From contig CP145412.1 of the NCBI GenBank assembly GCA_036867785.1, positions 186,001-250,000 on the forward strand: a DNA stretch of 64,000 nucleotides, given 5' to 3'. A program made the translations under genes and the position numbers. Shown here in pieces: positions 5,693 to 44,543 of the stretch. Below the pieces are notes generated by a model that was not told the origin of the DNA, ran no database searches, and was given only the letters and a program-made list of their open reading frames with translations. Position 1 is the first letter of the stretch. Each line of letters begins with the position of its first letter. This stretch comes from Plasmodiophora brassicae (taxonomy: Eukaryota).

Positions 5693-6506
5693 TGCGCACG
5701 GCCAGGCCGCAGTCCGCAGACCTGAAACCATTATTGCAAACGACTTCCGGGTTGCCCTAGCGCTGCATCTGTACGACGTATGGTTGCCCACCGTGTTAAT
5801 CCTGTGTTTAAGCTAACGATGCTGTTAGACAAATGTCAGCATCATCTGTGTCATCTAACGAGTCCAGAGTCGTGGAGATTGGAAATGAACCCACTGTAAC
5901 GCCAGCTCCATCGACTGCCGCGGCGAGCAGTAGCACATGGAAAAATTCTTCGTCTGACGTGAACTGCTTTATTGCGAACGATGCAAGCCATGCGGCGCCA
6001 TGGTTCTGTCTTCCATGTGCATCAAAGAACAAATCGCGAACCGCCGTCAGTAGTGTTTAATCTTGCCCTGATTGACGGATATCGATGGGGTGTACAGGTC
6101 ACTGTGTTCGCTGACGAGGTGGCGACGGAAGTTAGACGTGCTCTTAACCTTCCAACGCTGCGATTTGTTCTTTGATGCACATGGAAGACAGAACCATGGC
6201 GCCGCATGGCTTGCATCGTTCGCAATAAAGCAGTTCACGTCAGACGAAGAATTTTTCCATGTGCTACTGCTCGCCGCGGCAGTCGATGGAGCTGGTGTTA
6301 CAGTGGATTCATTTCCAATCTCCACGACTCTGGACTCGTTAGATGACACAGATGATGCTGACATTTGCCTAACAGCAACGTTAGCTTAAACACAGGATTA
6401 ACACGGTGGGCAACCATACGTCGTACAGATGCAGCGCTAGGGCAACCCGGAAGTCGTTTGCAATAATGGTTTCAGGTCTGCGGACTGCGGCCAGGCCCGT
6501 GCGCAG
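5693..6506. repeat. Fold-back inverted repeat 1: core arms 5705-6037 / 6160-6492 (~333 bp), 122-bp spacer
   Basis: Arms read as direct reverse complements with about 4 substitutions seen. Mirror ORFs 5833(+)/6364(-) and 5972(+)/6225(-) have near-identical translations. Confidence 0.97.
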
Positions 6507-6579
6507 TCGGGACAGGCGGTCTGTCGATACTCGATGTACCGCAAACTCCCACAAGTCCGCTACGGCATCTACAAGTCCG

Positions 6580-6772
6580 TGACCCGGGTCGACTGGGAAC
6601 CCCCACGGATAAGTCGGGTCGGGTCGGGTCGACCCGCTGCCATCTCTGCCCACCACCCGTGAATGAAAATATCGCGCATTGCGCTCCGTTGCGTTTCATT
6701 GCGCTCCGTTGCGCACCATTGCGTTGCGTTGCGCTCCGTTGCGCTCCGTTGCGGTCCATTCATTCGCGTGAA
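6580..6772. repeat. (GGGTC)n/GACCC cluster followed by a ~10-bp tandem array (GCGCTCCGTT-like); probable DNA-transposon subterminal remnant
   Basis: gtcgggtcgggtcgggtcgacccg at ~6613-6636. Repeated gcgctccgtt/gcgtttcatt/gcgcaccatt units at ~6675-6760, bracketed by a short inverted repeat cgtgaatgaa / ttcattcgcg. Confidence 0.7.
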
Positions 6773-6925
6773 AACACGAACGTTGCGCGCGCAACGAAGC
6801 GCGCCAAGGACAAGAGGTGCCTTGTTTCGGATGCCGTGACGGAGTGCGAGAAGCCCAGCTGTCGGGCTTGCCGGGCATTTCGTTTGCGAGCAGATTCGAA
6901 ATGGTGTTCCAGCCGTTGATACATA

Positions 6926-7568
6926 AGGTCGATGTAGATCGTGCCAGTCGGTACAGTTGGTTCGATTGGTCTGTCTAGCATGCATTCGCGTAGCTGTATT
7001 ACGAAAACCTTACTGCACTACGTAGCCGTCGACCGGGTTTCGGAGGGCTGTCATGCGCGCGGTCATCCTTACCTCGCGCATCAGATAGTCGCGACGCTGT
7101 ATGGAAGGCGAGGCCCACCAGCGGCCGACGACGTATCGTGTCCATCTCCATTTCGTTGATCGAAGCGCCTCTTGGGCGACTGAAATCTGGGGTCTGTGTG
7201 TGGTAATCACTGTGCTGAATACGTTGTTCTGTTTAACACAGAGCAAACCAAGGAGAAAAAGCGCACAGTGATCAGTGTACAGATAAACCACACTCAGACC
7301 CCAGATTTCAGCCGCCCAAGAGACGCTGCGATCAACGCAATGGAGATGGACACGATAAGTCGTCGGCCGCTGGTGGGCCTCAAGCCTTCCATTCAGCGTC
7401 GCGACTATCTGATGCGCGAGGCAAGGATGACCGCATGACAGCCCTCCGAAACCTGGTCGACGGCTACGTAGGTGCAGTCAGTAAGGTTTTCGTAATACAG
7501 CTACGCCAATGCATGCTAGACAGACCAATCAAGTCGACTGTACCGACTGGCACGATCTACATCGACCT
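6926..7568. repeat. Fold-back inverted repeat 2: arms 6926-7204 / 7287-7568 (~280 bp)
   Basis: Reverse-complement arms with scattered substitutions and indels. The loop contains a nested inverted repeat atcactgtgc / gcacagtgat. Confidence 0.95.
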
Positions 7569-41465: not shown

Positions 41466-41869
41466 CCGGCACGCGAAGCAGCCACGGAGTCCGTGACGGA
41501 CACCGTCACGCGCGACGACAGAAGATCGATCGCCACGTCAACCTGTCGTTCCAGGTCCTGTGCACAACGGACGACGCTGTGCCGTATCACGGCACTGACG
41601 ATCGCGGTCAGCCGGTGGTGTTATTCGCGTGTCTGCGATTATGTTCGTCGTCGACCTTGTCCCCTGGTGTCTCGAGTCTGTTTCTCTCCTTTCCAGAAAT
41701 GGTGATGCGTTCAGCGTCAGCGCGTTTGCCGCGATCGGCTGCCAAGCGTGCGAGTGACTACGTCGAGGCCAATGACGGGCGGTTAGACTTGAGAGTATCC
41801 TCTCGGGCGCCGAATAGCAAACCAGGTCCATGGTCTACAATGCCGTTTCTGCATCGCCTTCGGCCGCGA

Positions 41870-42911
41870 GGAGAAGGTGGGCGCCAAGCGCAAGCCTTCG
41901 AGCGATGTTCAGGGATGGATTCGCCCCTTCCGCTATGACAACATAGAGAATCACGTTGCCGGTCAGCATCCTCAGAAGTGGGCTGAGTACAACCTCCTTA
42001 ACTCGGCTGCTGATCGTAATGCCTTCTTCGACGATGTCCCGGTCGCGTTCAAGAACTCTATTAAGGCGCACTTCCCTTCTTTATCTCTTGACGCTGAGCG
42101 TCAAATGGTGTTCGACGTTGCCGACAGTGATTCGGAGAGTGATGCGGAGGAGCTAGCATTCGGCAGTGAGGCTGAGCGCAATGCTGTACTTCGTCGACGT
42201 GCTAAAAAGACAGCTTTGGCGGAAGAACGAGCGGTAGCGTTATTTAAGCGCGTGGATGGCAATGGTGACGCCGACTATTCTTATTCAGTCACAATCCCAA
42301 GTCAAAAACCTCTGTATTCCAGCTTGCGGTACGATACGTGGCATGCGGCGCTTCCTTTCGATTGGCAGCCAACATACTGAGCTGCACGTATGATGTGCTG
42401 CACAATCCTCTTCTGCGGTCGTGCTCTCGCAATGATGTTGCCAACTTCATCAGGGTTGTTTATGCTGTCAATCTGCAGCGCATGGCACGCCATCTGCGAC
42501 ATGCCTGGGGATTTTCGATTGCTCTGGACTCTGCCACTCATCAGAGTACCTCCTATCTCGACTTGCGCTTCCGAATCTTCCTACCAGCCTTCCACAACAT
42601 TGTGAATGTGCATGCGGCGAGTGACGACACCAGCAACGCGGCTGTGGAAGGCTGGTAGGAAGATTCGGAAGCGCAAGTCGAGATAGGAGGTACTCTGATG
42701 AGTGGCAGAGTCCAGAGCAATCGAAAATCCCCAGGCATGTCGCAGTTGGCGTGCCATGCGCTGCAGATTGACAGCATAAACAACCCTGATGAAGTTGGCA
42801 ACATCATTGCGAGAGCACGACCGCAGAAGAGGATTGTGCAGCACATCATACGTGCATCTCAGTATGATGGTTGCCAATCGAAGGAAGCGCCGCATGCCAC
42901 GTATCGTACCG
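41870..42911 (+). mobile_element. Degenerate DNA-transposase remnant (probably hAT-like), ending in a fold-back
   Basis: PFRYDNIENHVAGQHPQKWAEY and YVACGASFRLAANIL...WGFSIALDSATHQSTSYLDLRFRIF (the FSIALD motif resembles the first catalytic Asp of DDE transposases). Frameshifted and truncated. Confidence 0.65.
42327..42911. repeat. Fold-back inverted repeat 4: arms 42327-42596 / 42643-42911 (~270 bp), 46-bp spacer
   Basis: Reverse-complement arms with about 5 differences seen; mirror ORFs 42390(+)/42849(-). Confidence 0.97.
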
Positions 42912-42920
42912 TGTGGCTAG

Positions 42921-44543
42921 CTCAGAACCGAGTTGAAATGAGAATGAATCGTTTATCGATTGCTGGGGGGCTGACGCCCATGCACTCGTGCAGCTTCGGA
43001 ACCTTCCGAGGAACACAACGTTCACGCAACCTTGGAACCTTCCGAACGTCTCTGAAATACCGCGAAGGTTCGACTCGAACCGTCCCAGAGTGGCCTGGAG
43101 GACTTGCAGACGAAATCACCTGTTCGAGTCTCCTCCTCAAGTTTCACCAGGCCAATTGACTTGAGATGCCTTTCAAATGTCATCCTGGCCGACGCCTTCG
43201 TCATGACGTCCGCCTGGTTGCCTTGGCTTGGAACATATGAGAGCTTGATCACGTACGGCTTGACGCACGAAGTGGTACTTGATATCAATATGTTTCGTTC
43301 TCCCCTTCAGGTCCATATCGTTGTAGGCCATCGCGATCGCACTTTGGTTGTCGATGTACACATCCAATGGACCTGAAGGGGAGAACGAAACATATTGATA
43401 TCAAGTACCACTTCGTGCGTCAAGCCGTACGACAAAGATTGATCAAGCTCTCATGTGTTCCAAGCCAAGGCAACCAGGCGGACGTCATGCATCTTGTCCT
43501 TCAGGAGACTGATCTGCAGCTGGTCTGGCATATCGATGTCCTTCTCGAGGAACTGGATCATTAGAGACTCCCATCTGATTCGGAAATCCAGAGCCCCTTC
43601 CTTGCCTTGCTGCCTGATCCAACTGAGGGTCTTCGCCATGTCCCCTGCTTCTTCGTCATCAAATCTCGCGACCATGTGAGCCTTGACAGCATCATATGTC
43701 CAGGTGTTGCCTTTCTTGTGTACCAGTTTCTTGTGAGTCACGTAGACAATCCTTGCCTTGTCCAGGAACGCGTTGTCCAAGAACACGCTCCACTGCTGTC
43801 TCCCAACGTTCGACCTTTTCATCGTGTCCTCGAAGGAGTCGAACTAACCGGCGCATTGGTTCCGCTTGCCGGAGTACTTGGCGATTTCAGTTCTTAGGCC
43901 CAGGTCCTTAGGCTTGACCAGCTCCTGGGCCCTCTCTCTCGCGACCTGTAGCTCTCCTGAACCGCCTCCACGACCCCGATGTTCTGCCTCTAGAAGGAAC
44001 GTCCTCCAATCCTGGTTCAAGCCCTCATCACCCGCTACGGTCGCCACCAGGACCTCCATGGTCATCGCATCCTTGTCGTCGATGCCCAACTTCCTCACCA
44101 CCTTTGTCCAATTGGCCTTGCATGCCTTCAGGATGTTGACGCTGCGGATCACGGTCTTCAGCAGATCAATTACTCACGTCTCGGTGGTCAGGCCCTACAG
44201 GGTCTGTGATGTAGTCCTTCACAAACGATTCTCCGACTTTGTCGAGCATCATCCAAACGCTCTTCCTCGGTCCTTGCCCGACACCCGCTCCATGCTCGCC
44301 CGACATGGCCTAGAGACACTGGGACTCTTAATCACTCATAACCGAGTTGAAATGAGAATAAATCGTTTATCGATTGCTGGTGGGCTGACGCCCATGCACT
44401 CGTGCAGCTTCAGAACCTTCCGAGGAACACAACGTTTACGCGATCTTGGAACCTTCCGAACGTCTCTGAAATACCGCGAAGGTTCGACTCGAACCGTCCC
44501 AGAGTGGCCTGGAGGACTTGCCCACGAAATCACCTGTTCGAGT
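42921..44543 (-). mobile_element. Internally deleted Ty1/copia LTR retrotransposon; 209-bp LTRs at 42921-43129 and 44335-44543
   Basis: Direct repeats; polypurine tract TTGAGGAGGAG next to the 3' LTR; copia RNase H (DNQSAIAMA...RTKHIDIKYHFVR...NQADVMTK); gag-like ORFs at 43451-44300; flanks GCTAG/GCTTG may be a target-site duplication. Confidence 0.85.
43202..43489. repeat. Fold-back inverted repeat 5 inside the copia RNase H: arms 43202-43316 / 43367-43489, 50-bp spacer
   Basis: MDLKGRTKHIDIKYHFVRQAVR is encoded on both strands; the arms differ by an 8-nt indel and one substitution. Confidence 0.97.

Follow-up and report, generated by a model that had tools for sequence, protein, structure and literature searches.

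Five inverted duplications, here HP1 to HP5, lie within the window (the whole 64-kb stretch of Plasmodiophora brassicae DNA that was analysed) and are, on balance, probably genomic scars of break repair and not a dedicated system. We infer the repair mechanism from their anatomy and breakpoints. The initial annotation had proposed an endogenous hairpin-RNA or siRNA system, with a neutral repair by-product as its alternative; nothing was found in the sequence to indicate a dedicated siRNA system, and it is this alternative that is favoured here, the scars being presumed neutral. The five duplications are confirmed, in one assembly, at the positions originally reported for them, which are accurate to ~15 bp. 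A repeat search of the whole window returned 12 inverted pairs no more than 3 kb apart, all 12 of which are assigned to HP1-HP5. A blastn pipeline recovered four of the five structures in the real window, missing HP2, and found a comparable inverted repeat in none of 20 composition-preserving shuffled windows.

The arms are 115-509 bp long and enclose spacers of 33-122 bp. The genes around all five structures have 60-68% GC, and the intergenic or TE-debris stretches that hold them are lower in GC (52-59%); HP1-HP2 and HP4-HP5 occur as pairs that are 290-420 bp apart. Substitutions per aligned site between the arms amount to 0.014 in HP1, 0.054 in HP2, 0.153 in HP3, 0.015 in HP4 and 0.009 in HP5, with transition to transversion counts of 3:2, 9:6, 36:35, 1:3 and 1:0 respectively, which reveal no transition excess. 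This divergence of 0.9%-15%, together with an anatomy common to three of the five, upholds the earlier view of a recurrent fold-back process that acted on unrelated sequences at different times. Fold-back chimeric reads, as produced for example by whole-genome amplification or missed adapters, do yield arm-spacer-arm junctions, and the structures are seen in a single assembly only. An assembly or amplification artefact is nevertheless very improbable: genuine substitutions and indels separate the arms (0.9-15%), the arms are short and flanked by different unique DNA on either side, the differences in HP3 fall in codon phase, and the copied arm of HP5 keeps the ancestral frame where its parental partner has lost 8 bp. 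None of these features is expected of a chimeric read. The insertion of Foldback-type transposons or long-TIR MITEs at the five sites, which would account for the arm-loop-arm design and the short loops, is more improbable still. None of the 10 outer ends shows a target-site duplication, leaving 0/5 structures with one, and no further copy of any arm or spacer occurs within the window. Furthermore, the arms come from inside the coding regions of three element families that are unrelated to one another, and not from element termini; one arm is collinear with the outer flank in HP4 and weakly so in HP5 (E 0.037).

HP4 has arms at 42327-42596 and 42643-42911 that are 98.1% identical over 270 columns and are separated by a 46-nt spacer. 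Its parent is a truncated transposase gene fragment on the plus strand (41744-42619) that comprises codons ~5-318 of a protein of ~700-750 aa and carries a frameshift near 42300. The parental arm (plus strand) covers transposase residues ~220-310, while the spacer (42597-42642, plus strand) is parental over 42597-42619 and then consists of ~23 nt of filler (42620-42642). The copied arm (minus strand) is an inverted copy of residues ~230-312 and is followed by unrelated DNA. With eight family proteins as queries, tblastn placed transposase residues ~5 to ~318 at 41744-42622, and past residue 318 none of the eight had a match in the window. Protein homology is lost after '...NVHAA'. A blastn comparison with 32 moss-metagenome loci showed that collinearity with related copies (L001 and others) ends at 42619 and that the DNA match resumes inverted over 42647-42911, after the ~23 nt of unmatched filler, which has no template in the window. 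Outside 41744-42911 blastn gave no match to the related copies, so no transposon termini are found there. A member of the family is named 'Transposase' in one source, and PF27073 is listed as a precomputed tag; no Pfam family was found in the six full-length members scanned, and PDB searches were without match. Aligned to a hAT protein with hhalign, the family scored a probability of 0.55%, and the alignment contains C-x-x-H and R-W-x-S-T-like blocks that are reminiscent of hAT motifs.

HP1 has arms at 5692-6037 and 6160-6506 that are 98.3% identical over 347 columns and differ by five substitutions and one indel. The parental arm (6160-6506, minus strand) corresponds to the 5' part of a hAT transposase gene, namely the upstream region and the first ~68 codons with a BED zinc finger. 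The 122-nt spacer (6038-6159, minus strand) stays collinear with the hAT coding sequence of the parent as far as 6050, and the copied arm (5692-6037, plus strand) is an inverted copy of 6160-6506. A phmmer search with the HP1 ORF gave 23 matches. One relative, P0190 (704 aa), contains Dimer_Tnp_hAT (E 2.6e-11), DBD_Tnp_Hermes and zf-BED domains, with a hAT-like RNase-H match of 26.5 bits that lies just under the family's 27-bit cut-off; the window ORF itself matches zf-BED at E 0.0026, below cut-off. In tblastn, residues 42-104 of P0190 run on the minus strand from 6241 to 6050, across the arm/spacer border at 6160. The homology ends 12 nt from the left arm, the other ~600 residues are absent from the window, and the copied arm is matched only by residues 8-35 of P0188. 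Judged by its BED-finger N-terminus and by relatives with the hAT dimerisation domain, the parent is assigned to the hAT superfamily. Each arm contains ~140 bp upstream of the first ATG. In both HP1 and HP4 the 5' region of the element, in which its promoter may lie, points into the hairpin, as would be expected of an effective silencing trigger.

HP5 has arms at 43202-43316 and 43367-43489 (123 columns, 92.7% identical) that differ by one substitution and one 8-bp indel. The parental arm (minus strand), which carries the 8-bp deletion relative to its partner, matches the C-terminal part of a Ty1/copia-type pol, and the 50-nt spacer (43317-43366, minus strand) is collinear with copia-type pol upstream of the arm. 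The copied arm (plus strand) is inverted and its pol reading frame is uninterrupted, with residues 1494-1528 in one frame over 43382-43486. Residues 1472-1511 of P0185, a protein of 1550 aa with precomputed rve, RVT_2 and gag domains, map to 43370 through to 43248. Among 27 candidates, three were matched, all with RVT_2, and the best of them (E 7.3e-5) also has rve and gag; in tblastn, HP5 and pol are 61% identical over 41 residues. The proposed origin of HP5 from the pol C-terminus of a Ty1/copia LTR retroelement has modest support. A retrotransposon gag-like fragment (43490-43843, minus strand) adjoins the copied arm and shares its strand with the pol remnant, so that HP5 apparently sits at an internal deletion junction. 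This fragment matches Pfam Retrotrans_gag at E 0.029, below cut-off, and 26/30 of its Atlas feature matches belong to the Retrotrans_gag set (top score 0.95). The pol remnant, HP5 and the gag-like fragment are bracketed by a 209-bp direct repeat (copy 1 at 42921-43129, plus strand; copy 2 at 44335-44543) whose copies are 95.7% identical and possibly represent LTR remains; no TG..CA ends were seen on them.

HP1, HP4 and HP5 share one anatomy, in which a mobile-element coding fragment spans one arm, enters the spacer and then stops; its last 115-347 bp reappear next in inverted orientation, and unrelated DNA comes after them. The inverted copy is adjacent to the breakpoint in all three, and beyond the novel junction on the far side the flanks are unrelated. 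The transposase past residue 318, the hAT protein past residue 104 and pol before residue ~1472 are all absent from the window. Together with the lack of target-site duplications and of extra copies in the window, this fragment anatomy fits snap-back, self-primed synthesis followed by end joining. A double-strand break would have occurred inside the coding region of a dead mobile-element copy, whereupon the resected 3' tail would have folded back on itself 33-122 nt from its end and served as primer for 115-347 nt of DNA synthesis templated by its own strand. This newly made inverted copy would then have been joined to another DNA end, in HP4 with ~23 nt of filler, and the rest of the element lost. 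The predicted product is an element fragment, a spacer, an inverted copy of the last part of the fragment and unrelated DNA; transcription of such a hairpin, if any, would generate long double-stranded RNA as a side effect, and for the three TE-derived hairpins that side effect may resemble Mu killer. Priming microhomology would be absorbed into the arms and hence not be visible after the event, and the HP5 alignment, where the pol match runs 4 nt into the copied arm, is indecisive in this respect.

Replicative template switching of the fork stalling/MMBIR type, a model presented in PMC2621351, would have a nascent strand switch to the opposite template at a site nearby, copy 115-500 nt backwards and switch again. 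It would likewise place the inverted copy beside its template across a short gap, it would accommodate the extra filler of HP4, and the pairing of HP1-HP2 and HP4-HP5 within 290-420 bp is suggestive of complex multi-switch events. However, past the inverted copy the parental sequence is not resumed, the rest of each parent gene (transposase, hAT and pol) being missing from the window, and a broken end joined elsewhere fits this better than a switch and return. Template switching is thus considered distinctly unlikely, although one sequence cannot rigorously separate it from break repair.

HP2 (6923-7571) has arms at 6923-7204 and 7287-7571 that are 91.0% identical over 289 columns, 11 of them gap columns, and flank an 82-nt spacer (7205-7286); their differences show no codon phase. 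HP2 was probably made by the fold-back route or by a related replicative template switch. HP3 (33865-34881) has arms at 33865-34339 and 34373-34881 that are 75.9% identical over 519 columns, with 54 gap columns. Its spacer is 33 nt in the gapped alignment (34340-34372), whereas the ungapped cores lie 68 apart; judged by eye, the spacer contains a short imperfect palindrome. In the left copy, a TM ORF of 78 codons is open on the minus strand (34354 to 34121). Of the 37 differences in the ungapped inner block of 179 nt, 28 are at codon position 3 (phase split 28, 4, 5), and in a 158-nt local alignment the third positions account for 21/29 (binomial p 1.9e-5). This concentration indicates that the two copies diverged while encoding a small membrane protein. 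HP3 is accordingly read as a head-to-head duplication, much older than the other structures, in which the first coding exon of such a protein was doubled and both copies remained under protein-level selection. The constraint appears to act on the protein and not on the duplex, whose longest perfect run is 23 bp, and HP3 thereby speaks against a pairing-based function. The sources named in the initial annotation are partly revised. The copia-type origin of HP5 stands, and the HP4 family, annotated there as a DDE transposase, is named 'Transposase' in one source with its catalytic domain unconfirmed. The 'TM-protein remnant' of HP3 is, with its open left copy, more than a remnant; of the two 'unknowns', HP1 proves to be a hAT transposase N-terminus with its BED finger, which leaves HP2 alone under that label.

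In Mu killer, part of a transposase gene is duplicated in inverted orientation, and a hairpin transcript is proposed to mediate its action (PMC3440606). In plants and flies, long inverted repeats are known to give rise to hpRNA/siRNA (PMC8728187). By analogy, the TE-derived HP1, HP4 and HP5 could be transcribed into long hairpin RNA, from the promoter of the truncated element or by read-through, and this RNA cut by Dicer into siRNAs. Intact copies of the hAT, transposase-family and copia-type elements would thereby be silenced in trans, and the hairpins retained for this benefit. Three of the five hairpins are indeed inverted duplications of TE coding sequence, with perfect duplex runs that reach 136, 110 and 65 bp. 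Moreover, upstream of its hairpin the HP4 fragment retains codons ~5-318 on the same strand, and the sequence upstream of the first ATG is carried in each HP1 arm. We regard this reading as unlikely, since the anatomy is fully accounted for without any function. HP3 derives from a host-type TM ORF and not from a TE gene, the gaps and decay of HP2 and HP3 speak of decay without pairing being maintained, and some chytrids, the fungi that include the nearest named relatives of the source of the window, have no Dicer (PMC12663654).

For the favoured reading, that of break-repair scars, the density of five in 64 kb is high. The same repeat search in 13 moss-derived loci (181,742 bases) found one structure with arms of at least 88 nt, and the blastn pipeline found one in 32 moss-derived loci (262 kb), both from a different organism and hence a crude yardstick. 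Such a density could point to something beyond random repair, which counts against this reading, as do the direction of the 5' regions in HP1 and HP4 and arms roughly ten times longer than the fold-back insertions of yeast. A quite improbable extension is that an unusually processive snap-back repair in this lineage routinely turns broken transposons into long hairpins downstream of the element's 5' region, in which its promoter may lie. If true, each accidental truncation would yield a self-targeting Mu killer-like trigger, so that damage to a TE would, as a built-in and recurring consequence, lead to TE silencing.

Plant MIRNA genes reportedly originate by inverted duplication of their target genes (Allen et al. 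2004). HP3 is similar in being an inverted duplicate of a protein-coding exon, but its codon phase points to constraint on the protein and not on a fold-back RNA. The structures described here share with the long inverted repeat (hpRNA/siRNA) loci of LIRBase an arm-loop-arm geometry able to form long dsRNA. LIRBase calls for arms of >400 nt with at least 80% matches, and only HP3 is long enough, yet it is 76% matched; its genome counts cover invertebrate metazoa, plants and vertebrates, and the word 'fungi' does not occur in its text (PMC8728187). The Mu killer locus of maize, an inverted partial duplication of MuDR, is alike in that a hairpin, if transcribed, would be homologous to the element, but its hairpin RNA is given as ~4 kb (PMC3440606), against far shorter arms here that are known from DNA sequence. 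Aberrant or alternative transposition of Ac/Ds and abortive gap repair of DNA transposons also leave truncated DNA-transposon copies with inverted duplicated segments, which are described as able to start siRNA silencing (bioRxiv 10.1101/2020.01.07.897926); in contrast, HP5 stems from a retroelement, which does not excise, and HP1 and HP4 have no flanking transposon termini. In yeast, fold-back templated inverted duplications arise at breaks by self-primed synthesis and end joining (PMC11724301), and a related process is synthesis-dependent microhomology-mediated end joining (SD-MMEJ; PMC2943611, PMC5728401). The yeast insertions are induced and mostly ~5-34 bp long (PMC11724301), whereas the structures here are fixed in a wild genome with arms of 115-509 bp, roughly tenfold longer. 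As these tracts exceed the tens of bases typical of the class, they are said to work like fold-back insertions and strict membership is not claimed. Both have in common an inverted copy that lies beside the breakpoint and is joined to another end; both leave a short gap unpaired, contain filler in some cases and lose the sequence past the break.

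The initial annotation described five inverted repeats, and all five are real, as a scan of the window gave 12 inverted pairs within 3 kb, 12 of 12 falling in these structures. HP1 to HP5 (5692-6506, 6923-7571, 33865-34881, 42327-42911 and 43202-43489) have, in this order, arms of 347, 289, 519, 270 and 123 gapped alignment columns with 98.3, 91.0, 75.9, 98.1 and 92.7% identity, 0.014, 0.054, 0.153, 0.015 and 0.009 substitutions per site between the arms, longest perfect duplex runs of 136, 32, 23, 110 and 65 bp, and spacers of 122, 82, 33, 46 and 50 nt. A blastn pipeline recovered four of the five in the window, missing HP2, and found no such repeat in any of 20 shuffled windows. 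There is no transition excess among the arm differences in the gapped alignments, therefore nothing RIP-like acted on the arms and mutation of this type is rejected. Of 24 listed sequencing runs, 20, from 9 studies, contain 50% or more of the words sampled from 33700-43600; no run with them is on record as RNA, with six guessed to be RNA. Pfam matches to ten hairpin ORFs were all sub-threshold. Five structures in 64 kb is a high density: 13 moss-derived loci (181,742 bases) searched with the settings of the window scan gave one comparable structure and the blastn pipeline gave one in 262 kb of 32 loci versus four in the window, these controls being DNA of another organism and thus a yardstick only.

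The window is eukaryotic and carries a DNA-PKcs-type gene, an Ofd1/Tpa1-type oxygenase with its nearest named relatives in Chytridiales fungi (56-57% identity), a PARG-like ORF, a Casc1_N ORF and a FATC-ending kinase gene. From the oxygenase relatives, the source is a chytrid-like fungus. The GC content of the genes is 60-68% and that of the hairpin-bearing stretches 52-59%. The space from the 5' end of the DNA-PKcs-type gene to the following gene contains HP1 and HP2, HP3 lies 311 bp beyond the FATC end of the kinase gene, and HP4 and HP5 are located among mobile-element fragments that form a block at about 41.7-45.2 kb. The DNA-PKcs-type gene is represented by its N-terminal part (511-5250, minus strand; CC1/2 domain, E 2.9e-37) and leaves the window at the left end. 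A PI3/PI4-kinase and FATC C-terminus is found in several frames at 32023-33553 on the plus strand, 27 kb away and opposite in orientation, and could be a second PIKK gene, an intron-bearing gene or a rearranged piece. Members of the Casc1_N family are associated with cilia and flagella, and the ORF at 63104-64000 would fit a zoospore-forming fungus. Other repeats include a minisatellite between HP1 and HP2 (6677-6760; 10/20/30-bp period, about eight copies of a 10-mer), an isolated near-perfect palindrome of 32 nt (16730-16761, 93.8%), and two tandem 105-bp units (51112-51321, 79% identical) that overlap the 3' end of ORF 50439-51407, whose SUEL-lectin match scores 28.6 bits, under the 31.4-bit cut-off. 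The two inverted copies of a large segmental duplication (44677-46996 / 58706-60797) lie 12 kb apart; they share a 1.6-kb core that is 89% identical, and each contains an ankyrin-repeat ORF of about 280 aa (45684-46526, plus; 59388-60227, minus).

HP1 derives from a hAT transposase. An exhaustive phmmer search gave 23 relatives of its minus-strand ORF, which extends out of the right arm and across almost the entire spacer, and among the seven scanned the full-length P0190, a hAT protein of 704 aa, contains a hAT dimerisation domain, a Hermes DNA-binding domain and a BED finger, together with a hAT-like RNase-H match of 26.5 bits that is just under the 27-bit family cut-off. Residues 42-104 of P0190 map to 6241->6050, cross the arm/spacer border and end 12 nt short of the left arm; the remaining ~600 hAT residues are absent from the window.

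For HP4, 44 of 191 candidates are related at E <= 0.001 to the plus-strand ORF through the left arm; they are proteins of about 700-750 aa. 'Transposase' is one source's name for one member, and attempts to classify the family did not succeed. In tblastn searches with eight relatives, residues ~5-318 align at 41744-42622, interrupted by one frameshift; in the right arm only residues ~230-312 match, in inverted orientation, and residues past 318 were not found anywhere in the window. The parent copies are represented by 32 related loci from metagenome contigs, with which the window is collinear over 41744-42619 at 84-87% DNA identity; a filler of about 23 nt (42620-42642) without match follows, and the inverted copy then occupies 42647-42911. 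The protein homology ends exactly after '...NVHAA', where the relatives go on '...LPMFDRHTGE'. Collinearity with the parent copies is seen in the left flank and not in the right one, and the junction word gave 0 matches in metagenome contigs. The 32 loci (34-50% GC; 35-47% among the 19 of 5 kb or more) are read as moss DNA because of their low-GC flanks, copies near-identical to P0001, a protein related to the HP4 family, and a P0001 cluster that includes Sphagnum proteins. The transposase fragment at 41744-42911, in a chytrid-like genome of 60-68% GC, shares 85-91% protein identity with proteins annotated on Sphagnum chromosomes of 10-32 Mb, and a diatom carries more distant relatives; the fragment may reflect horizontal transposon transfer between a moss and an associated fungus.

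HP5 contains a remnant of a Ty1/copia-type polyprotein, which its minus-strand ORF matches with three hits among 27 candidates (best E 7.3e-5). The match to pol residues 1472-1511 crosses from the spacer to the left arm, which has lost 8 bp, and the right arm encodes residues 1494-1528 in a single unbroken frame. The copied arm is adjoined on the same strand by a gag-like fragment (26 of 30 Atlas feature hits in the Retrotrans_gag set; sub-threshold in Pfam), and a direct repeat of 209 bp (42921-43129 and 44335-44543; 95.7%, no gaps) brackets the pol remnant, HP5 and the gag-like fragment. No TG..CA termini were seen in these direct repeats, which may be the remains of LTRs. The pol remnant, the abutting gag-like fragment and the bracketing repeat thus place HP5 at what looks like the junction left by an internal deletion in an LTR element.

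HP1, HP4 and HP5 share one anatomy, in which an element fragment is followed by the spacer, an inverted copy of the last 115-347 bp of the fragment and then unrelated DNA. A foldback transposon or MITE is rejected on the lack of target-site duplications at any hairpin and of further hairpin copies in the window. Since HP5 stems from a retroelement, repair of transposon excision alone cannot explain the set. The observed anatomy would instead arise if a resected broken end snapped back, primed its own synthesis and was then joined by end joining, and loops of tens of bases with arms of hundreds would reflect the mechanics of repair rather than a purpose.

HP3 is unlike the other four. In an inner ungapped block of 179 nt the 37 arm differences distribute as 28, 4 and 5 by phase, and the frame that places the 28 at third positions is the open TM-protein frame; in a local alignment of 158 nt, 21 of 29 differences fall in that phase (p 1.9e-5). 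This codon phasing indicates that, for most of the time over which they diverged, purifying selection acted on both copies at the protein level. The left copy retains an open ORF of 78 codons with its ATG inside the spacer, the right copy is without an ATG and has a stop, and the outer blocks show no codon phase. This single-pass membrane-protein ORF at 34121-34354 (minus strand) has no recognisable relatives in Pfam or the Atlas (best Atlas score 0.81, below the bar for recognition) and is a candidate for a real small gene. HP2 matched no protein family, its arm differences follow no codon phase, and the window has no further copy of it. The proposal of a recurrent fold-back process is supported for three of the five hairpins, those of shared anatomy.

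It had further been proposed that such hairpins may constitute an endogenous hairpin-RNA/siRNA system, which is unsupported. Any transcripts of HP1, HP4 and HP5 would fold into long near-perfect duplexes homologous to three element families. HP1 and HP4 are arranged so that the 5' region of the element itself leads into the hairpin, in which they resemble Mu killer (PMC3440606) and long inverted-repeat hpRNA loci (PMC8728187). That HP2 and HP3 have decayed speaks against selection for pairing. Some chytrids have Dicer and others lack it (PMC12663654). Such scars are raw material for hairpin-RNA silencing loci elsewhere, and therefore the three young TE-derived hairpins are concrete candidates for a small-RNA check, on which any case for a silencing system would depend. 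The favoured alternative is that of repair scars. If it holds, the window records the mending of breaks by long self-primed fold-back synthesis and end joining, with scars accumulating in transposon graveyards, and this bears on the comparison of break-repair pathways across early fungi; annotation should avoid labelling them as genes, MITEs or miRNA precursors. In yeast, inverted duplications templated by fold-back are described that follow a like logic, but these are mostly ~5-34 bp (PMC11724301), compared with fragment copies of 115-347 bp here.
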